From assembly GCA_963810615.1 (NCBI GenBank), contig CAWEOA010000002.1, forward strand, positions 654,515 through 718,514: a stretch of 64,000 bases of DNA, written 5' to 3'. Source of the stretch: an uncultured Gammaproteobacteria bacterium. GTDB taxonomy: Bacteria > Pseudomonadota > Gammaproteobacteria > DRLM01. Below, one piece after another: positions 25,064 through 34,915 of this stretch. The stretch's first letter is position 1, and every line of letters begins with the position of its first letter. The translations under genes were made by a program, and so were the position numbers. A model generated the notes under the pieces. That model saw nothing but the letters and a program-made list of their open reading frames with translations, searched no databases and was not told the origin of the DNA.

Positions 25064-25366
25064 TCCCGCAATGGCCTGTGCTTAAACATTGGTATAGGTA
25101 ATCTGTTCATTATCGTGCCTTATCGGCCCGCATTCGACCCAACGCAGACCTTCGAAAGAGACGGAAGCCCCGCTCATGGCTGATAAGTACGGGTCCCGCT
25201 TTTCCGGGCTTGAAATGATCATACTCACGGCGTTACGTCCTATAATTAAACGGTAATATCAAGTTAAATCGGGGAAAGTTGAAAATGTATAACGAGACTC
25301 GGAGTCCCGTTCATATAACTGTTATGCGTCTTATCAGAAAGTGACGCATCCGGTGTCTATAGACAA

Positions 25367-26146
25367 ATGAAGAACCAGCACGATGAATTGTGTGAACTGG
25401 GTTGGAACGACTGGTTCGATCAACGGGCAGCATGCAAACCAACAGATACTGTCGCACGCGTTGCGGCTGTCGACCGCGACCAGTTACTACTCGTGGATCA
25501 AGCCGGTCATTTTCGAGCAAAACTGTCGGGTAGCTATTTGCACCACCATCACGATTCACATGAACTACCCTGCGTGGGTGACTGGGTGTGCGTGGAGAGA
25601 CAACTCGGTGACGACTTTGGGATGATCCACACGCTCCTTGATCGCAGGACTTCGCTGCGTAGAAAGTCGGCTGGAAACAGCATCGAGCACCAAATGATCG
25701 CGGCAAACCTCGACTATGTGGTGATCGTTCAGTCATGCCAATTCGATTTCAATCTGAATCGCTTGGAACGCTATCTCGTCATGGTGTTGGATGGCGGGGC
25801 GGAGCCGTACATTTTGCTAACCAAGACAGACCTCGTCGATTTTACCGTGCTGGCCTCACAGTTGGCTGAGATAGCTTCCGCCGGTATCACCGCACCGATT
25901 TTGCCGCTAAGCAACGTCACTCATGATGGGCTGGATAATCTCAAGAGACTGCTATTACCAGGAAAAACCTATTGCTTTGTCGGTTCATCCGGGGTTGGCA
26001 AGAGCACGCTAATAAACCAGTTGATTGGCCACCAAAGGTTGGAAATAGGTGTAGTCAGTGGGACGGGAGAAGGACGGCACACGACAGTTCGACGAGAGCT
26101 GATTCGTCTCGACGGGGGCGCACTGGTCATCATTCGTACGAACTAG
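25367..26146 (+). CDS. RsgA/YjeQ-like circularly permuted GTPase, truncated at the G3 motif and lacking the C-terminal zinc-finger domain (possible pseudogene)
   Basis: It aligns with RsgA through the OB fold, the G4 block (LLTKTDL), G1 GSSGVGKSTLIN and G2 GRHTT. Where RsgA has VIDSPG the ORF reads VIIRTN-stop, and no continuation exists in any frame. No SD precedes the ATG. Confidence 0.65.
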   Translation: MKNQHDELCELGWNDWFDQRAACKPTDTVARVAAVDRDQLLLVDQAGHFRAKLSGSYLHHHHDSHELPCVGDWVCVERQLGDDFGMIHTLLDRRTSLRRKSAGNSIEHQMIAANLDYVVIVQSCQFDFNLNRLERYLVMVLDGGAEPYILLTKTDLVDFTVLASQLAEIASAGITAPILPLSNVTHDGLDNLKRLLLPGKTYCFVGSSGVGKSTLINQLIGHQRLEIGVVSGTGEGRHTTVRRELIRLDGGALVIIRTN

Positions 26147-26161
26147 CATGATGAGATTCAT

Positions 26162-26935
26162 ATGAACACAGCGCTCTTCTTCACCACATGGCTCGCGGGT
26201 CTTCCTGGGGTTATTGTAGTAGCGTGGTTCGTGTTACCGATTCTCGTCGCGGATCGCCACCTCTCTGCACCGCTTTGGGTTGTACAGGTAGGAAGCGCAT
26301 TGCAAAGCGCTGTGCTGCTCGGGCTCGCAACAGCGGCAGGCACAGCATTGGCTCCCAAAGTCGGTCTTGCGGCTCCGGTATTTTCAGCCCTTATACAACA
26401 CAAGCATGCTATTGAAACACTTCGCCCACAATTGTTACCCAGTCTTGTCGGTGGCCTTGTAGGTGCCACGATTTTGTGGGTGTCGACTGCTGTTGCTCCG
26501 AAAGCCTTAGCAGAGGCCCAAACCAGGTTCTCCATGCCGATCGTCGCACGCCTACTCTATGGAGGCATCACGGAAGAGTTGTTGATTCGCTGGGGGGGCA
26601 TGACGCTGCTTGTTTGGCTTCTGTGGCATCTTGGACAGGGGGGTGCAGCCTCGCCTTCTGCCATCAGCGTATATTTAGCCATTTGTCTCAGCTCGCTACT
26701 GTTTGGTGCTGGTCACTTACCGGCTGTAGCGTCTATGGTTGGTCACATATCAGTTGGCATTGCCATATACGTCATCGCCGCAAATGCGGCATTTGGCATT
26801 GTTGCAGGCTGGCTGTATTGGCGATTTGGACTTGAGTCGGCAATACTAGCGCACATACTTGCTCATGGAGTCTTTCTCTTGGTTTCTCGGCGAGGAGGCA
26901 TCGCTAACGGTTCCAGTAAACGGTCGGCATGCTAA
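26162..26935 (+). CDS. CPBP-family (CAAX protease/Abi, PF02517-type) intramembrane metalloprotease
   Basis: It is a polytopic membrane protein with the three CPBP motifs: EExxxR (ITEELLIRWGG), FxxxH (LLFGAGHLPA) and HxxxN/H (AHILAHGVF). Confidence 0.8.
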   Translation: MNTALFFTTWLAGLPGVIVVAWFVLPILVADRHLSAPLWVVQVGSALQSAVLLGLATAAGTALAPKVGLAAPVFSALIQHKHAIETLRPQLLPSLVGGLVGATILWVSTAVAPKALAEAQTRFSMPIVARLLYGGITEELLIRWGGMTLLVWLLWHLGQGGAASPSAISVYLAICLSSLLFGAGHLPAVASMVGHISVGIAIYVIAANAAFGIVAGWLYWRFGLESAILAHILAHGVFLLVSRRGGIANGSSKRSAC

Positions 26936-26971
26936 CCCGCCGCCCCTATTATATCTGAGCATTGAACGCCC

Positions 26972-27056
26972 GCTTCTGGCCGCATTCGGAAGTAGGCGCG
27001 GTGCAACGCGAACTGGCACTTTCGACCCGAAGCGGACGTTCAGTAATACAATGTCC
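26972..27056 (+). repeat. ~85-nt conserved non-coding element, copy 1 (downstream of the CPBP gene)
   Basis: It is about 75 % identical to copy 2 by manual alignment, sharing the blocks gcttctggccg, ggaag.aggc, cgcgaactggc, tcgacccg and gcgg.cgt. Confidence 0.7.
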
Positions 27057-27362
27057 GAGCTGATGAATCTGGGCACTGGAGTAATGGGATTTCCTTGCAT
27101 AAGCCAGAGAGACGGTCTTCAGAATCAAAGCAGCCCTTTGAAAATAGAGGCTCAATTACATCCGCTTTGTAAAAAGCGATAACCCTAAATACATCATTAA
27201 TTTTGTCGGTAATTTTTACAAGTCAGAGAATGGGGGAAATATGTCTTGTATTATCTAATTGATAAAGAATATTAAAATATTTATGGCATTTAATTTGCCT
27301 TTTTATATTAAAAATTATAAGGGGGTTCTGATAACCACACAACGGAAGGGGAGGGAGCTTTT

Positions 27363-27974
27363 ATGAAAGCATACAAATTCAGCATGCGAGCATTATGCAT
27401 ATCCATAATAGCGAGTTTGCAATTGCTTGGACTTTCGCAAGAGGCAGCTGCAAGTATTATCGTCCAACTCGATAGCGTTGCGCCAGATTTAGTATTTCCT
27501 GGCAATTACCGATGGACATTCTCGGCCATAGCCTCATCAACCGATGGGTTCGGCTCATCAGTAGATAACTACTTCACCATCTATGATCTTCCCGGTTCTA
27601 TTACCACTGTTGAAGCCAGTGCCGTATATTGGGGCAGTGCATCCAGCGCTTTGACGGGAGTCACCCCAGTGGGACTGACTCCGGCTGATGATCCAAGTAA
27701 GCCTAATGTTACATTTAGATATATGGACTCTAGCGATCGTCCCGGAAACGCGGCATTTCAAGCCGGCGATCATTTCGATATCATTTTGTCAGATGGGATT
27801 CCTATCGATCTCCAGTATTCGTGGCAGGATTACAGCGCCTATCCAATTGTAAATAATCCACTGCAGAGTGGTCTGGGCACAGTTCAAAACAGCGTACCTG
27901 AGCCTGCAACTATCGGTTTAATAGGTCTCGGTTTAGCCGGATTGGGAATCAGCCGTCGAAAACGCGTCAACTAG
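27363..27974 (+). CDS. PEP-CTERM sorting-domain protein (exosortase substrate)
   Basis: It has a signal peptide and a C-terminal VPEP-ATIGLIGLGLAGLGI-SRRKR tripartite PEP-CTERM motif. A strong AGGGGAGGGAG SD precedes the start. Confidence 0.85.
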   Translation: MKAYKFSMRALCISIIASLQLLGLSQEAAASIIVQLDSVAPDLVFPGNYRWTFSAIASSTDGFGSSVDNYFTIYDLPGSITTVEASAVYWGSASSALTGVTPVGLTPADDPSKPNVTFRYMDSSDRPGNAAFQAGDHFDIILSDGIPIDLQYSWQDYSAYPIVNNPLQSGLGTVQNSVPEPATIGLIGLGLAGLGISRRKRVN

Positions 27975-27996
27975 ACGAATCCGTTATCGTGTAAGC

Positions 27997-28025
27997 AAAC
28001 CCCGCTTCGGCGGGGTTTTATTTTC
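27997..28025 (+). terminator. rho-independent terminator
   Basis: aaaccccgc-ttcg-gcggggttt is a perfect stem-loop followed by TTATTTT, and it lies 22 nt after the PEP-CTERM stop. Confidence 0.8.
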
Positions 28026-28072
28026 GTGAATCACGAGTCAAAGTGCAGCTGTGTAGTAGTGTGTAAAAGGCT

Positions 28073-28157
28073 GCTTCTGGCCGATGACGGAAGAAGGCAC
28101 AGCTAACCGCGAACTGGCGCTATCGACCCGCTGCGGGCGTCCGGTCAACATGAGCCA
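28073..28157 (+). repeat. ~85-nt conserved non-coding element, copy 2 (downstream of the PEP-CTERM gene and its terminator)
   Basis: See copy 1. The orientation is the same. Confidence 0.7.
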
Positions 28158-28372
28158 CCTGGCCAATAAGTTTCCTCCAAAACACCCAAATCTTACGGCA
28201 TCACGACTAATATGGGGTTAGACACTCCCGCCTGCTCCCTCGGTACACTCAACATCTGCAACAAATCAAACAGTGGACGATAACCTTTCAACATCAGAAT
28301 CCTCAACAATCACAACATACATGCGATGTGGAGGCGAAGGTTGCAAATACTGCACGGGAGGTTAGAACACTT

Positions 28373-28528
28373 ATGGACCTACACGAATCATTGTGTGAAA
28401 TATTAATTGCTGAAAAGATGGAGGAGAATCCACGGTTAACAAAGAAGGCTGCGGCTGAAATGGTTAATCGCGAGTTAAAAGAACAAGCGGCAGAAAATGA
28501 TGATATTTTCAGGTGTAGTGGCGATTAA
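28373..28528 (+). CDS. small hypothetical protein (51 aa)
   Basis: The ATG is preceded by GGGAGG, and the product is charged and helical (MDLHESLCEILIAEKMEENPRLTKK...). There is no homology support. Confidence 0.25.
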   Translation: MDLHESLCEILIAEKMEENPRLTKKAAAEMVNRELKEQAAENDDIFRCSGD

Positions 28529-28819
28529 CATTATATCGGGGCACATAAAAACATAGGAGTCATGCGCTGGAACCCGGTGCTGGCCAATTTTTATTTAAAA
28601 TCGTGATAATTTAATTATCTCGTTCTATATCAGTGGCCTTATGATTTAGAGGTCCACTTTCAGAGCGGACGTTCTTTCGGATTCGATACCATTCGGCAAA
28701 AGATATGGCAGCTCAATGTCTTGGGTATAACGCTTGTAAAGCAAGGTGGAAAACAGTGCTGAACATGCCATACTTTATAAAAAGATACTAAATTAGTGTG
28801 ATGCTGGGGAGGCAGTGTT

Positions 28820-29242
28820 ATGCCATACATCGTAGCTCAACATCCAAAGTTGGATGTGGTGGAACTTAAGCTCACCGGATTGATTACCGGAGTTGACTTA
28901 AGGAAAGCAACGTCCGAATGCATCGCAATACAGAAGCAGAATGGAATAAAGAGGTTTCTAGTTGATGCGAACGAGGGGGAAGTGGTCGCATCATTCAATG
29001 AGCTTTTCGAAATAGTAAGTGAGCAATATCACATTGAAGGACTCGATAAGAACAGTCGCATTGCGGTGATGCTTCCAACTACTTTAAGTGCAAAAGCCGC
29101 TGCAGATTTCTACGAAGCCGTATGCTTAAAAGGTGGGTGGAATGCACTGGTGTTTCCAAGCAATGAAAGCGCACTAGATTGGTTGATGGATACCGCTGAC
29201 ACAAGCAAGTCAACTGATAACGGGCCTCTTCACCGGTCCTAA
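28820..29242 (+). CDS. SpoIIAA-like/STAS-fold protein (DUF3478-type), paralog A
   Basis: A GGGGAGG SD precedes the start. The pattern LKLTG.ITG....EAT..CIA.QKQ...RFLVD..E.E..ASF...........RIAV.LPTT........FYE.V...GW.A.VF......A.DWL matches, as far as I recall, the SpoIIAA-like family consensus (RVLVDL.DFEGW ... RVAVVGD ... VRYF ... A..WL). Confidence 0.6.
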   Translation: MPYIVAQHPKLDVVELKLTGLITGVDLRKATSECIAIQKQNGIKRFLVDANEGEVVASFNELFEIVSEQYHIEGLDKNSRIAVMLPTTLSAKAAADFYEAVCLKGGWNALVFPSNESALDWLMDTADTSKSTDNGPLHRS

Positions 29243-29368
29243 AACGACCCAAAGCGGCAACGTCAATTTCTTGCGCTTCAGCGAATTAAGAAACACGGAA
29301 AACGGTGCGGCGCATGTCATACTTTAATAAAGCATATTAGCTTGCTGAGATATTGGAGGAAGTCGACT

Positions 29369-29773
29369 ATGCCATATACCATAACGTATGATCCTGAGTC
29401 AGATATCGTCAACCTGGCATTCACCGGGGAAATTACTGGGATAGTGATATCGGAAGCAACGTCTAAATGTATCGCCCTTCAGAAGCAGTCGCGTGCATTG
29501 CGCTTTCTAGTCGAAGTAAATGGGTGGGAAGTTGTCGCGTCATTCGTTGATATTTACAAACTTATTTACGATCAATACGCGGCAGAAGCAGCACATCGTC
29601 TATCCCGTATTGCTGTTGTACTTCCAACTACGGCAAGCGGACAAACTGCTGCAACCTTCTACGAAACTGTAAGCCAAAATGCTGGTTGGAAAGCACAGGT
29701 ATTTGCAAGCCGTAAAAATGCAATTGATTGGCTAACGACTAGCGAAAATATCAATGTCGTTGCTGCAGATTAG
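29369..29773 (+). CDS. SpoIIAA-like/STAS-fold protein (DUF3478-type), paralog B
   Basis: A GGAGGAAG SD precedes the start. It is about 45 % identical to paralog A, and both have upstream regions containing catactttaataaa. Confidence 0.6.
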   Translation: MPYTITYDPESDIVNLAFTGEITGIVISEATSKCIALQKQSRALRFLVEVNGWEVVASFVDIYKLIYDQYAAEAAHRLSRIAVVLPTTASGQTAATFYETVSQNAGWKAQVFASRKNAIDWLTTSENINVVAAD

Positions 29774-29858
29774 CGTATTTATCCAACGTAGCTCACTCAG
29801 CAGAACATCCAATTCTCGCGACACGGTAAGGTCACCTTCCCCACTCGTATGACCGCTT

Positions 29859-30236
29859 CTGGCCGGCAAGCGACCGATCGGCGCGGTCGTTCCCGGGTTG
29901 TGATGGTCTTAAACTTCAGTTTTCTCAGACATTTCCAGGGCGTCGTCAACCTCGATCCCAAGATATCTGACCGTGCTTTCCAGCTTTGTGTGCCCAAGCA
30001 GCAGCTGAACAGCTCGAAGATTCTTTGTTCTCCGGTAGATCAATGTTGCTTTTGTACGACGCAGGGTGTGTGTTCCATACTCCCCAGGATCCAGCCCAGC
30101 GAGAGCCACCCACTTTTTCACAATACGAGCGTATTGCCGCGTAGAAATATGTAGAGACTCCCTTAGCCGGCTAGGGAAAAGGAACTGACCCGAAGTGAGC
30201 TGTGCCTTGGCAATCCATGCCTCAACAGCCTCGCGC
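29859..30236. repeat. direct repeat copy 1 (3' portion of the recombinase gene), ~95 % identical to 32045-32422
   Basis: Manual alignment of the two stretches shows near-identity over about 380 nt, with a few substitutions and one 4-nt indel. Confidence 0.85.
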
Positions 30237-30544
30237 GTCTGGTCGGTCAACTCAAACTTCACCGGCTGTGCGGTCTTTTGCTGCATGACGGTCGTCCGTG
30301 ATATTGCCTTGCCGCTGTGTGCCACATCCCTCACTTGAAGCTTGACGATATCGCAGCCCCGAAGCTTGCTGTCGATTGCCAGGTTGAAAAGGGCAAGGTC
30401 TCTGATGCGTCTGGCCAATTGCAGTCGAATTCGGATTGCCCAGATCTCGCGAAGCTTCAATGGCGGCTTCGGCCCGATCAACCGATCCTTATTCCAAGGG
30501 ATGTGGGCGGCTGTGGCGGCTGTATTGTCTTGATTGATGTACAT
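29909..30544 (-). CDS. tyrosine-type site-specific recombinase/integrase (short form, catalytic domain)
   Basis: The C-terminal HTLRRTKATLIYRRT...LLLGHTKLESTVRYLGI carries the R...HxxR...Y catalytic signature of phage-integrase-family recombinases. A GGAGG SD lies 9 nt before the ATG at 30544. Confidence 0.8.
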   Translation of the reverse strand: MYINQDNTAATAAHIPWNKDRLIGPKPPLKLREIWAIRIRLQLARRIRDLALFNLAIDSKLRGCDIVKLQVRDVAHSGKAISRTTVMQQKTAQPVKFELTDQTREAVEAWIAKAQLTSGQFLFPSRLRESLHISTRQYARIVKKWVALAGLDPGEYGTHTLRRTKATLIYRRTKNLRAVQLLLGHTKLESTVRYLGIEVDDALEMSEKTEV

Positions 30545-30599
30545 GGTGTGTTTCCTCCATTCTGACTAGGGAAACACAAGTTTGGTTGATCGCAGCAGG

Positions 30600-30642
30600 T
30601 GGCGCTTGCCGACCCTTAGCCGACGTGGGCGTGAGTGTCAGC
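30600..30642 (+). repeat. partial third copy (3' half) of the ~85-nt element, about 55 nt upstream of the recombinase start codon
   Basis: tggcgcttgccgaccc..gccgacgtgggcgt aligns with tggcgctatcgaccc..gctgcgggcgt in copy 2. Confidence 0.5.
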
Positions 30643-30939
30643 TTTGAATAGATCCATGCAGAAAAGGGCCGCGGCGAGGTCTAGTCCGGGAGGATGATCC
30701 AAAATCGTGTCGAAATCTTTTACAATCAGACTGTCGCCGCCCCCAGATCAACCACAGGCCGGCTTGTAACAAACTGAAAACTTAAGTGCCTTTCATTCAC
30801 GGCACATAAATTGCTGCCATCAAGAACGGCCAGAGTGACGGCGTGGGGGGCACTCCGATATAAAAACGCGAATAAGGAGCGTCCGCGATGGCTTCGTTTA
30901 ATATGCACGAGCCATAAACATTCACATTGAGGAGACACC

Positions 30940-31806
30940 ATGAGACTTTCCGCCTGGCCCTGGCTCGGGATCCTGGCTGCCGCCATCACGATTGGCGCGG
31001 CGTCGGAGGCACGGGCGACACCGACCTATTGGAACCTATTCAACATCGAGGGTGAGAACAGCCTCAGCGCGGGTTTCATTACCTACGCCAGCCAGATTGA
31101 CATGCTGTTCGACATCAATCGGACGGGCTTCTATCAACCGAATGGCTACGGAGCGGGCCAGAACGTCGTCGGCACCGGATCGGACGGAACGACCTACTGG
31201 AACCTATTCAACATCGAGGGTGAGAACAGCGCTTTGGCAGGCTTCATCACCTATGACTCGCAGTTCGACATGCTGTTCGACATCAACCGGACGGGCTTCT
31301 ACCAGCCGAACTTCCACGGGGCGGCCCAGAACGTCGTCGGCAGCGGGTCGGACGGAACGACCTACTGGAACCTGTTCAACTTCGAGGGCGAGAGCACGTC
31401 CAACGCGGTCTACGTTACCTATGACAGCCTGATCGACATGCTGTTCGACAACAACCGGACGGGCTCCTTCATCCCGGACGGTTACGGGGCAGCCCAGAAC
31501 GTCGTCGGCAGCGGGTCGGACGGAACGACCTACTGGAACCTATTCAACATCGAGGGTGAGAACAGCCTCAGCGCGGGTTTCATTACCTACGCCACGCTGA
31601 TCGACATGCTGAACGACACTAACCGAGTGGTGTTCGCCCAGCCGAATGGCTACGCGGCGGGCCAGAACGTCGTCGGCAGCGGCGCGACCGTGATGGCCAT
31701 AACGGGGCCGGGGCCTGTGACCACCGTTCCCGAGCCGGAGACGCTATGGTTGCTGGGGCTGGGGCTGGTCGCTCTCAGCTTTCAGGCGAGGCACCGCGTG
31801 CGCTGA
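30940..31806 (+). CDS. PEP-CTERM protein with four 57-aa tandem repeats
   Basis: It has a signal peptide, four repeats starting TYWNLFNIEGENS...QNVVGSGSDGT, and a C-terminal VPEPETLWLLGLGLVAL-SFQARHRVR motif. A GAGGAGA SD precedes the start. Confidence 0.85.
   Translation: MRLSAWPWLGILAAAITIGAASEARATPTYWNLFNIEGENSLSAGFITYASQIDMLFDINRTGFYQPNGYGAGQNVVGTGSDGTTYWNLFNIEGENSALAGFITYDSQFDMLFDINRTGFYQPNFHGAAQNVVGSGSDGTTYWNLFNFEGESTSNAVYVTYDSLIDMLFDNNRTGSFIPDGYGAAQNVVGSGSDGTTYWNLFNIEGENSLSAGFITYATLIDMLNDTNRVVFAQPNGYAAGQNVVGSGATVMAITGPGPVTTVPEPETLWLLGLGLVALSFQARHRVR
31024..31704 (+). repeat. four in-frame 171-nt tandem repeats inside the PEP-CTERM gene
   Basis: Repeats 1 and 4 are identical at the nucleotide level over more than 60 nt (acctattggaacctattcaacatcgagggtgagaacagcctcagcgcgggtttcattacctacgcc). 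Confidence 0.9.
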
Positions 31807-32044
31807 AAAAATCCGGGTCAGATCACAGTTCTTTCTAATATAGATATACATCACTGAGCCAACTCCACAAGAAGATGGATAATGGCATGCAAACCCCGTT
31901 TTGCTCCACCGTGTATACCTCAACACATCATCCAGCGCGGAAATAACCGCGATGCATGCTTTTACGCAGATCAAGACCTTCAGTTCAAGCTAGACTACTT
32001 AAAAAAGCGGACAGTCAGCCTCAAGTAAAGAACGGCTCGTATTG

Positions 32045-32440
32045 GCCGGCAAGCGACCGATCGGCGCGGCCGTTCCCAGACCGTGGTGGCCTTAACCTTC
32101 AGCTTGCTCAGACATTTCCAGGGCGTCGTTAACCTCGACCCCAAGATATCTGACAGTGCTTTCCGGCTTTGTGTGCCCAAGCAGCAGCTGAACAGCTCGA
32201 AGATTCCTTGTTCGCGGGTAGATCAACGTTGCTTTTGTACGATTCAGGCTGTGTGTTCCATCCTCCCCAGGATCCAGCCAGCCCAGCGAGAGCCACCCAC
32301 TTTTTCACAATACGAGCGTATTGCCGCGTAGAAATATGTAGAGACTCCCTTAGTCGGCTCGGGAAAAGGAGCTGACCTGAAGTGAGCTGTTCTTTAGCAA
32401 TCCATGCCTTAATAGCCTTTCGTGTCTGGGTGGACATTCA
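32045..32440 (-). pseudogene. frameshifted 3' fragment of a second recombinase gene (duplicate of 29859-30236)
   Basis: It encodes ...AIKAWIAKEQLTSGQLLFPSRLRESLHISTRQYARIVKKWVALAGL and then shifts frame at a ccagcc duplication. It has no N-terminal part and no start. Confidence 0.75.
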
Positions 32441-32492
32441 ACGTACAAATTGGGCGCTGCGCGCTATTGAGCAGCCCCTCTCTAATGGAGGG

Positions 32493-32720
32493 TTATGCCG
32501 GGATTACTTCATTACAGACTACACCAGTCTCTTTGTTTTCGATTCGACTTTTAAACTTGTCATCCAAAGACGGGGCAGCAAGTCTCCCGATTAGCACATA
32601 GTCATTTTGCGTAACAGCCTTGGCGCTGGGGAACAAAAGAGGAGACGCAATTGCGATGGCTGCAAGTATGCAAATGACGATAACGACGAATAACGGAACA
32701 GCACGATTCGATAGCTTCAT
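32493..32720 (-). CDS. small exported or membrane hypothetical protein (75 aa)
   Basis: A GGAGG SD lies 8 nt before the ATG, and the N-terminus is a hydrophobic signal/TM segment. Confidence 0.4.
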   Translation of the reverse strand: MKLSNRAVPLFVVIVICILAAIAIASPLLFPSAKAVTQNDYVLIGRLAAPSLDDKFKSRIENKETGVVCNEVIPA

Positions 32721-33816
32721 TTAAATAACCTCCAACTTAAATAAAACAACGATAGTCACTCGATGTTTGTGAATGGGCATAACAGGCAACAGGCGGGCGC
32801 TCAGCATGCGCCGCAATTGATTAATATGCAATGGTATTGGTGCGCCGGCGTCAGTATATAAATCACAACAGTGCTGATATTGCCTGCAGGCTAGGGCTCG
32901 GAAGCGACAGTTCGCTACTGGCCGGGGGTGAACTTTTGAATGACCGCTATCATACAGCAGGAAAGATCAATAGAAACATAGAGTCTCTACGTTTCACCGC
33001 GATGCTCAGCGAAGCCATCCCATGGTTCGACACATGAGAGTCACACATTCATACGTGAGTAGCCGATAAGTGCTAAGCTGCTATTAACGTAAACGCAGGG
33101 GAAAATGTTATATCAACCGAAGAACAACGTGAGGCAGAGGCTGCGTCCCTTGAGCAGGAACGCCTAGCCTTCAATAGAACACATACTGCATGGATCGCCG
33201 TTCAAAATCAGTTTACACCCTTTGGTAATGGACAGCCTACTCAGGACAGCATTGATCAATACTATGCTGCCGAAATTGATTGGGAAGTAGCCCAAGCAAA
33301 AGTGAAGCGTTTCGGCATCGAAACAAGGAGTGATGCATGATAATAAAGCCTACCCGAAACGACGTACACGGAGCCGCCGCCATACTGATAAAGGTAAAAG
33401 GGGCTCCCGCACTTATGAAAGTGCTCGGCACATACGGTGCCGTCCGTACCGGCCAAATTCAGATGCGCGACTGGCCTCGATTTATCACAGATTGTCAGAA
33501 AGTGGAAACTGCATAGCTATCGTTTATCTGTCCAGCCTTTTCGGATCCAAGTTGATCAATGCGAATTTGTCCACTTGAAAATTGGACACTCAGTTCACCT
33601 AGAGCAATGTCGGGTATTGGCCGACACTTGCCTTGACCGATAGGCAGGCGCGACGGGATATCAATACTGAGGACTGACAATATTCGATAACTACGGTTGT
33701 TTCAGCGTGATGCAGATGCCCAACATATTAGTTAGCGGTCGCGGCTATGAGAGACGACAGAATTAGCACGGAAGAATCATGAGCACGACGCCCTCAATTA
33801 CGATAACAGGTCGTTA

Positions 33817-34287
33817 CTACCAGGCATGGATGTAATTAAGTGAGACCTGCATAGGCTCGAAAGGAGCCTGGATGTTGTAAATGGCGCCGTGATAGTAACT
33901 ATCCAGCGTCACATTGAGCGACAACCTTCCCGTATTGGTATTTGTATCCGCTCCCGTGGAAGCCTCGCTGAAATTAGCATTCCCGCCGGACACGGACCTG
34001 TCCGAGGTTTGCCATCCAGCATTCACGCCACGTACGCCAGACGCGAGTTGTGACGGACGGACCTCGATGCCACTCTGCCGTCCGGCATTGCGCGTAGTTG
34101 CCTGAGAAGACAGGACGGCGGGATCACAGCGGGAGAAGATCGCAGTGCACAGAAGGAGAGTGGCGCTCTGCGACCCAGATACCGCTCGCGGCGCAACCGC
34201 CCCTTCAGCGCGGCATCCAACTGAGGCACCCATTCCAAAAACAACGAGAGACAAGTTTAAGATTAAAACGCGCCTCTGACAGGACAT
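33817..34287 (-). CDS. secreted hypothetical protein (156 aa)
   Basis: An AAAAGGAG SD lies 7 nt before the ATG. The product has a signal peptide, a Ser/Gly/Asn/Thr-rich mature region and a C-terminal aromatic residue. Confidence 0.55.
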   Translation of the reverse strand: MSCQRRVLILNLSLVVFGMGASVGCRAEGAVAPRAVSGSQSATLLLCTAIFSRCDPAVLSSQATTRNAGRQSGIEVRPSQLASGVRGVNAGWQTSDRSVSGGNANFSEASTGADTNTNTGRLSLNVTLDSYYHGAIYNIQAPFEPMQVSLNYIHAW

Positions 34288-34915
34288 CTGGAAACTCCTT
34301 TTTAGCTGGCTGCTGGCTGCGATTAACTGACTATTGTACGCTTTTTTTAAATACCAACAAAAGGTTAGACAACAATTTCGTCAAAAATATCCCTGCGAAT
34401 AGGAGGCCACCCCAAACGAGGAGTGGATAGTTCTTTCGCAAACTTCAGCTTTGGAGGCAACATACAAAAGTCAGATATCAAAAATTCAACAAATTGCGCA
34501 CCTTCCAATTCTTGATAAAGTAAGTCATCAATAGGCCTATATATTGTCGCGAACTCGGAGCTAAACAGCTTAATTAGTTGGCTTTCAATTTAGACAGGGC
34601 AAGGCGCTCAAAGAGCATGAATCCGCTTAGCTCGTCAGGGAAGTGGGCTCTCAGCCCTGTCTAATCAAGTGACTGATTGAACTCGCAGCCGATGCGAGAC
34701 ATTCCAACAGCTGCACTTCGGTATAGATAATGACAGAGAAATTAGGCACGACCAGTGGCTACACTTAACGCGCTCGTTTCGCTCTCATGGGCATAATATG
34801 CAGTGTGATATAAATGAAAAAAACTCAACAGAGAAGGAAATCGACAACCGTGTTACGTGGTTTAAACTTATGTAGGGATGAATGATCCGTTACACATGGC
34901 GCGCTAAGCACCTAC

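Follow-up and report, generated by a model that had tools for sequence, protein, structure and literature searches.

The stretch of DNA analysed here (the window) comprises 64,000 nucleotides of contig CAWEOA010000002.1 from an uncultured gammaproteobacterium (GTDB lineage DRLM01). It carries an open reading frame (ORF) of 259 amino acids that resembles the ribosome-assembly GTPase RsgA, followed by a gene for an intramembrane protease of the CPBP family. The 259-aa ORF is most likely a fresh pseudogene of a mobile, accessory RsgA paralogue of 356 aa, made by a deletion of 502 nt, with the CPBP gene as an unrelated neighbour. A first-pass annotation of the window had instead suggested that the two genes form an undescribed defence or toxin-immunity system in which a GTPase module is coupled to a CPBP protease; its fallback was that an accessory copy of rsgA had been destroyed when a CPBP cassette inserted.

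A probable 502-nt deletion in an RsgA paralogue

Comparison contigs were retrieved by looking up the exact CPBP protein, and came from three independent metagenome assemblies: L002 (a 300-kb contig from ENA), L003 (a 2.4-kb contig from Logan) and L004 (also from Logan). Two blocks of L003 match the window at 100% identity, one of 1019 nt up to position 26130 and one of 877 nt from 26130 onwards; between them, L003 holds 502 extra nt. The same extra DNA is present in L002 and L004 (blastn against the window), and the flanks of L002 are at least 99.5% identical to the window. The 502 nt comprise RsgA codons 256–356, the stop codon, a region with a degenerate attC and the bulk of a spacer of 226 nt, of which 31 nt are left after the deletion; the residues encoded in the missing segment include DNPG, a zinc finger of the form C-x4-C-x-H-x5-C and a basic KRKKDR tail. 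With the insert, the L003 gene encodes a complete protein of 356 aa, which passes the TIGR00157 model (153.6 versus a cut-off of 100) and matches the E. coli RsgA structures with an E-value of 2e-34. In this alignment DNPG falls on DSPG and the zinc-finger residues are in register, the finger of the L003 allele aligning to CKYRDCKHDTDPGC of E. coli RsgA. In both L002 and L003, the intact RsgA gene is followed after 226 nt by an identical CPBP gene. Ancestrally, an intact RsgA gene was separated from the CPBP gene by the 226-nt spacer, and the loss seen in the window is derived.

No repeat explains the loss of the 502 nt, because the two sides of the junction share a single T only, the placement of which is ambiguous. 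The deletion is very recent, because the retained part of the gene is 100% identical to the intact allele; therefore there has been no time yet for decay or selection to leave a mark. The cut form was found only in the window's assembly, and the exact 259-aa protein does not occur in a collection of about 15 billion proteins in which the 356-aa form is present.

The identification of the 259-aa ORF as an RsgA/YjeQ homologue, proposed from the sequence at first pass, is borne out by its match to the Pfam family RsgA_GTPase (PF03193; E 7e-40, score 137 versus a cut-off of 30, profile positions 2–163 of 174); the cut-off of 100 for TIGR00157 is missed narrowly (94.3 bits). The OB fold and the G4 (TKTD), G1 (GSSGVGKS) and G2 (GRHTT) motifs are present, and G3 (DNPG), switch II and the C-terminal zinc-finger domain are absent. 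The circularly permuted G domain (G4-G5-G1-G2-G3) is incomplete in the window ORF, which has no G3 DxxG. That the ORF ends at G3, as had been noticed, also holds: it is collinear with its nearest relatives up to residue 255 (...GGALVI), where every relative continues with DNPGMREF (G3), and then reads IRTN and a stop codon, these terminal four codons and the stop being former spacer DNA. No remnant of the RsgA 3′ end was found anywhere in the window by tblastn, and the zinc-finger motif was found neither in the ORF nor elsewhere in the window. The best 120 homologues are all 318–382 aa long, mostly 356 aa, and their C-terminal 100 residues are nearly invariant in the alignment. The Walker B/G3 aspartate is needed for the coordination of Mg2+ and the gamma-phosphate, and the C-terminal domain of E. 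coli RsgA contacts the 30S subunit. Because both the G3 aspartate and the 30S-contacting domain have been lost, the truncated 259-aa product would most probably be inactive. Truncated or frameshifted copies of the same paralogue also occur in other lineages (L025, 5001–5879; L045, 2802–3861), at positions unlike that in the window. These copies are consistent with occasional decay of an accessory gene, and assembly errors are possible there.

The parent gene is probably accessory rather than the housekeeping rsgA, because its protein stays far below the cut-off of NF008931, the equivalog model for gammaproteobacterial RsgA (170 versus 360 bits); the distribution of the paralogue across phyla and its cassette structure are in line with this status. 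The 356-aa clade has a conserved LGWNDWF N-terminus. Its members come from Gammaproteobacteria, Betaproteobacteria, Zetaproteobacteria, Desulfobulbaceae, Geobacteraceae, Syntrophobacteraceae and Nitrospirae/Thermodesulfovibrio, and further from Chlorobiaceae, Verrucomicrobia, Lentisphaerae, Kiritimatiellia, Acidobacteriota, Gemmatimonadota, Anaerolineaceae, Clostridia and Riflebacteria. A spread over more than 10 phyla at 60–91% identity is far wider than expected under vertical inheritance of a ribosome-assembly factor.

The CPBP gene is intact. As annotated at first pass, it begins 15 nt after the RsgA-like ORF on the same strand and belongs to PF02517 (Rce1-like), which its 257-aa product matches with an E-value of 8e-10 and 39.3 bits versus a gathering cut-off of 22.4. 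The catalytic motifs EExxxR (E138, E139, R143), FxxxH (H185) and HxxxH (H231, H235) are kept and form invariant columns in the alignment of its homologues (A3), which are 44–68% identical to it. The relatives at about 65% identity share a stable chromosomal context (purH, a CxxCxxCC protein, the CPBP gene, an aminotransferase and then chemotaxis genes), which is unrelated to the island in the window. The CPBP gene stands on its own as an undamaged membrane-protease gene that simply came next in line within a decaying low-GC island of cassette-like make-up.

That both genes are lower in GC and sit in a low-GC island was seen correctly at first pass, the island (25064–34915) having 49.9% GC; the word "markedly" goes too far for the two genes themselves, which are only moderately low (52.4% for the RsgA-like ORF and 54.0% for the CPBP gene, versus 58.5% in the 9 kb upstream at 16–25 kb and about 60–65% elsewhere). 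Scans for promoters and terminators gave counts not above those of shuffled controls.

Neither gene has a constant partner. On the RsgA side, a scan of species-representative genomes gave 80 loci of the same paralogue (63–91% identity); searched with a hidden Markov model (HMM) of 120 CPBP homologues, their 5-kb flanks contained no CPBP gene of this subfamily. No recurrent neighbour emerged when three genes on each side were clustered, the largest cluster being an acetyltransferase-like ORF at five loci. On the CPBP side, 80 metagenome loci (44–57% identity) and three further loci at about 65% identity were surveyed; RsgA-like sequence was present in none of the 83, nor did any conserved neighbour appear among them. 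With the PADLOC models, the CPBP protein had no match and the GTPase nothing beyond a P-loop match of 15 bits, at the level of noise. Near the CPBP gene, neither a bacteriocin nor a partner for immunity or abortive infection was found. A truncated rsgA beside a CPBP gene thus does not recur at the loci covered by this survey of gene neighbourhoods, of the kind proposed at first pass; the pairing is unique to this genome, a situation that the first-pass annotation had listed among its grounds for refutation, and so the idea of a coupled system fails. The pair represents ordinary gene decay beside an unrelated neighbour, not a new two-gene system.

The RsgA paralogue as an integron cassette, and the island in the window

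The RsgA paralogue of other taxa has the form of a classical integron cassette. Even at 90–91% nucleotide identity, the DNA similarity between taxa extends past the gene by only about 45 nt on the upstream side and about 23 nt on the downstream side. The cassette begins with G/TTATGCGCC (the G/TTRRRY type), and GTTATGCGCC sits about 45 nt before the ATG. At the other end, the inverse core GGCGCATAAC, which is the reverse complement of the 5′ core, lies 12–17 nt past the stop codon and is followed by paired L″/L′ arms, a GC-rich central stem and a GTTRRRY core 55–66 nt further on. The sequence GTTAYGY, the reverse complement of the GGCGCATAAC that opens the gene's own attC, occurs 42–49 nt upstream of the ATG in 15 of the 82 loci. 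The features that define a cassette (an attC inverse core RYYYAAC, paired arms, GTTRRRY and a complementary 5′ end) are thus found for the paralogue in general, with recognisable ends at roughly 12–16 of the 82 loci by a strict motif count and many other copies without recognisable sites. Because only these 12–16 loci keep their cassette ends, many copies of the paralogue appear now to be fixed chromosomal genes.

The attC sites of these cassettes also fold. The hairpin z-scores range from −2.6 to −5.5 in five of the seven sites and are weaker in the other two. RNAalifold gave no consensus for 13 mixed attC sites, different attC types having been mixed in that alignment, and was replaced by a nine-sequence alignment with a stated structure; here 85.7% of the pair cells are paired, versus about 32% in slid controls, and three pairs are compensatory. 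A covariance model built from the RsgA-cassette attCs recovered further co-oriented attC sites at four loci (L008, L047, L059 and L170), among which L008 has an array of three attCs and a second RsgA copy 3.8 kb away. At L011 (Table 1), the adjoining IntI fragment lies about 540 nt upstream on the opposite strand and corresponds to the C-terminal third of the integrase (158 bits on TIGR02249, positions 218–314 of 315). On another gammaproteobacterial contig (L168, 1775–9071), nine small ORFs (35–356 aa) in one orientation look like a cassette array, and the paralogue comes last among them; covariance model R1 detected no attC within this segment, and any sites there would be of another type. 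A full-text search of the literature found no paper on a cassette-borne or horizontally mobile RsgA paralogue, and nothing relevant on RsgA cassettes, CPBP cassettes or RsgA paralogues.

Table 1. Coordinates of the features discussed, in the window unless another locus is named
Feature	Location	Strand	Basis or remark
Truncated accessory RsgA-paralogue ORF, 259 aa	25367..26146	+	Pfam and NCBIfam matches; alignment to 356-aa relatives
CPBP/Rce1-like intramembrane protease gene, intact, 257 aa	26162..26935	+	Pfam PF02517; homologues; invariant catalytic columns
Deletion junction, 502 nt missing	26130..26131	.	L003 prefix/suffix match; blastn of L002, L003 and L004
5′ boundary of the RsgA cassette	25300..25327	+	Core remnant GTTATGC (25321-25327) after the 24-nt repeat CGGAGTCCCGTTCATATAACTGTT
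attC-like imperfect palindrome (D4)	26961..27044	+	26 nt past the CPBP stop; candidate recombination site of a CPBP cassette
Degenerate D4 copy, hairpin lost	28073..28140	+	Downstream of the PEP-CTERM gene (27363-27974); nhmmer E 2e-27, no significant fold
D4 copy after the RsgA gene, in the segment deleted from the window	L003 1389-1465		
21-nt trace like the 3′ half of D4, left edge of the island	25133..25153	+	17/21 identical; local alignment only, weak
attC of the RsgA-cassette type (GCATAAC ... GTTGAAT)	32436..32498	-	Covariance model R1, 24.6 bits, E 1e-5 (12-kb island, filters off)
Short tyrosine recombinase, 211 aa, catalytic domain only	29909..30544	-	PF00589, E 3e-21
RsgA-paralogue cassette	L001 139-1337		
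RsgA paralogue and attC features	L008 1655-2809, 3921-4007, 4526-4651, 5438-5674		
RsgA cassette with adjoining IntI fragment	L011 4112-6150		
Solo RsgA cassette adjoining ispB-rplU-rpmA-obg	L170 8001-9156		

In the window, the DNA homology of the paralogue to other taxa begins at the boundary listed in Table 1. The 24-nt repeat that precedes the core remnant there recurs at 1367–1390 of L003, where it also ends at a GTT core. Decay of the attC that belongs to the RsgA cassette can already be seen in L003, where the inverse core has mutated to ACATAAA and homology to other attCs stops at this point. In the window this attC has been deleted, so that the copy there keeps only the 5′ GTTATGC remnant and has no attC of its own.

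A repeat family of about 80 nt (D4) trails three successive ORFs in the same orientation, namely the RsgA, CPBP and PEP-CTERM genes. Of the D4 copies, the one after the CPBP gene (ATTGAAC-GCCCGCTTC ... GAAGCGGAC-GTTCAGT) alone has kept a long imperfect palindrome. A scan of the 64 kb for AAC...GTT hairpins ranked it first (−34 versus −28 kcal/mol for the next), and its fold z-score is about −3 on both strands. Only the extreme top matches of this home-made scan are usable, since at moderate thresholds it is unspecific (187 matches on the plus versus 192 on the minus strand over 705 kb). Besides the copy in the deleted spacer, nhmmer found two copies of D4 in the window and none elsewhere in it, and none was found beside the RsgA paralogues of other taxa, because of which we regard D4 as local to this lineage. 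Either an attC family specific to the lineage or a small element, mobile or REP-like, could account for it. The minus-strand attC of the RsgA-cassette type comes directly after an ORF of 75 aa (32493..32720, minus strand) and touches the beginning of a recombinase gene fragment (32129–32437, minus strand).

The recombinase that the first-pass annotation placed in the island does exist, as a short tyrosine recombinase. It reaches 29 bits versus a cut-off of 265 on the IntI model TIGR02249, so it is not an integron integrase, and it is not linked to the RsgA–CPBP pair. Two direct repeats of 387 nt that are 90% identical (29860–30242 and 32043–32429) are parts of two short tyrosine-recombinase gene copies and bracket a 1.8-kb segment with the 5′ part of the recombinase and a PEP-CTERM gene. 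L002 has one hybrid recombinase copy and lacks the 1.8-kb segment, which constitutes a second structural polymorphism in the island.

The remaining genes of the island include an ORF at 30940–31806 (plus strand) for a PEP-CTERM protein of 288 aa, with tandem repeats of 168 nt (56 aa) at 31022–31500 that are 78–83% identical and carry the motif GTTYWNLFNIEGEN; the PEP-CTERM protein encoded at 27363–27974 is unrelated to it. Two ORFs that lie side by side (28820–29242 and 29342–29773, plus strand) encode paralogous proteins of 140 and 143 aa; they are about 71% identical over a 139-nt DNA repeat, and one of them has a weak SpoIIAA-like/STAS match (PF11964).

A regular integron array was considered for the island and rejected on account of the few D4 copies, the unspecific hairpin scan and the lack of IntI. 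With moderate confidence, the island may be described as a decaying, integrase-less remnant cluster of cassette-like units. This label is tentative, because the island holds only two convincing attC-like sites, and these lie on opposite strands.

Probable history and alternative explanations

The sequence comparisons suggest the following history. An accessory RsgA-paralogue cassette and an unrelated CPBP gene would have come to adjoin in a variable low-GC island, and the attC of the RsgA cassette would then have decayed. In the lineage of the window, a deletion of 502 nt, with no meaningful homology at its junction, would have removed G3, switch II, the zinc finger and the spacer, after which the reading frame would run for four codons (IRTN) into spacer DNA and stop 15 nt before the CPBP start.

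Several points weigh against this history, or against parts of it. The deletion is known from one assembly, in which a real loss and an assembly error would have the same appearance. No IntI-like sequence was found in the window, and the convincing attC-like sites in the island are the two on opposite strands described above. The presence of a housekeeping rsgA elsewhere in the genome is suggested by the NF008931 score, the analysis covering 64 kb. The CPBP start now lies 15 nt behind the new stop codon, so that the fragment and the CPBP gene could be co-transcribed. Readthrough into the CPBP gene from the RsgA promoter may occur in this arrangement; there is no sign of functional coupling.

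Among the alternatives, an assembly artefact survives best, and we consider it unlikely. In that case the organism would have an unbroken gene for 356 aa with its 226-nt spacer, the 502 nt having been dropped in assembly or bypassed along the path of a minor variant. On the one hand, the 502 nt are present in all three other assemblies, and the flanks are 100% identical to L003, as if no time had elapsed since the event. On the other hand, the junction offers no repeat that could mislead an assembler, only an overlap of 1 nt, and such deletions are common as real polymorphisms in accessory DNA. Whether artefact or real deletion, the reading of a cut GTPase working with a CPBP protease as a system fails either way.

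The fallback of the first-pass annotation, in which a CPBP cassette was inserted into an accessory rsgA and cut the gene at G3, is right in that the RsgA copy is accessory and has been destroyed, and the cassette-like features of the island and the attC-like hairpin accompanying the CPBP gene would suit it. The cause it names is very improbable: in L002 and L003 the identical CPBP gene already lies 226 nt past an intact RsgA gene with no interruption, the missing RsgA 3′ end is found neither beyond the CPBP gene nor elsewhere in the window, and the difference from the intact form is a plain loss of 502 nt with nothing gained.

It is equally improbable that the two genes form a genuine module, in which the G3-less fragment would bind the 30S subunit, or GTP without hydrolysis, and would work or be translationally coupled with the CPBP protease in defence or toxin immunity. 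The fragment does keep the OB fold, G4, G1 and G2, the CPBP catalytic motifs are intact and the 15-nt spacing would permit co-expression. The arrangement is nevertheless confined to one assembly, the pairing is absent from all 163 related loci and no defence family is matched; the retained part shows zero divergence from the intact allele and no signature of selection, and broken copies in other lineages (L025, L045) are cut at other positions, as expected for a decaying accessory gene. The recent deletion of an accessory gene beside an unrelated protease gene remains the preferred explanation.

For the intact 356-aa paralogue, a speculative and rather doubtful proposal is that it represents an undescribed mobile ribosome-directed factor, i.e., a cassette-borne, 30S-binding GTPase spread across more than 10 phyla, perhaps with a selectable ribosome-related benefit to its host. 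Such a benefit might consist, for example, in the protection or rescue of the small subunit under antibiotics or stress. More remote still is the thought that the deletion created a selected operon of the G3-less fragment and the CPBP gene.

Two things follow for the reading of such loci. A tidy, motif-exact cut of a domain next to a membrane protease turned out to be a strain-specific deletion, exposed by near-identical contigs, which calls for caution, and no new defence or toxin-immunity architecture is involved. A modest side result is that very distant bacteria share, in the form of an integron cassette, a circulating paralogue of a GTPase central to ribosome assembly.

Comparison with known systems

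The CPBP protein resembles the CPBP/Abi family (PF02517) in being a membrane protein of the eight-helix type of about 250 aa with EExxxR, FxxxH and HxxxH/N motifs. It differs in that its subfamily has no conserved neighbour at the 83 loci, no PADLOC match and no relative of solved structure detectable by sequence. With neither a protein-model match nor a conserved partner, it does not belong to the known defence or toxin-immunity systems that contain CPBP/Abi proteins.

In comparison with RsgA/YjeQ/EngC (TIGR00157, PF03193; E. coli structures 2ykr, 5uz4 and 7boi), the L003 parent has the same OB fold, permuted GTPase domain and C-terminal Cys3His zinc finger. It differs in belonging to a distinct clade of mobile paralogues, marked by the LGWNDWF N-terminus and the score of 170 versus 360 on NF008931, and the window copy differs further in lacking G3 and the zinc-finger domain and in falling below the TIGR00157 cut-off.

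In comparison with integrons, the window lacks intI, has few attC-like sites, on both strands, and carries a recombinase other than IntI. Clusters of attC sites and single attC sites without an integrase are called CALIN and SALIN, respectively, in the terms of IntegronFinder. The likeness to integron cassettes is clear for the RsgA paralogue of other taxa, with its G/TTRRRY 5′ end, GCATAAC inverse core, L″/L′ stem and GTTRRRY core, its co-orientation with attC-bearing ORFs and, at one locus, an adjoining IntI fragment. The window retains part of this likeness: it has the remnant of the 5′ core, a single attC of that type (32436–32498) and the attC-like hairpin after the CPBP gene.

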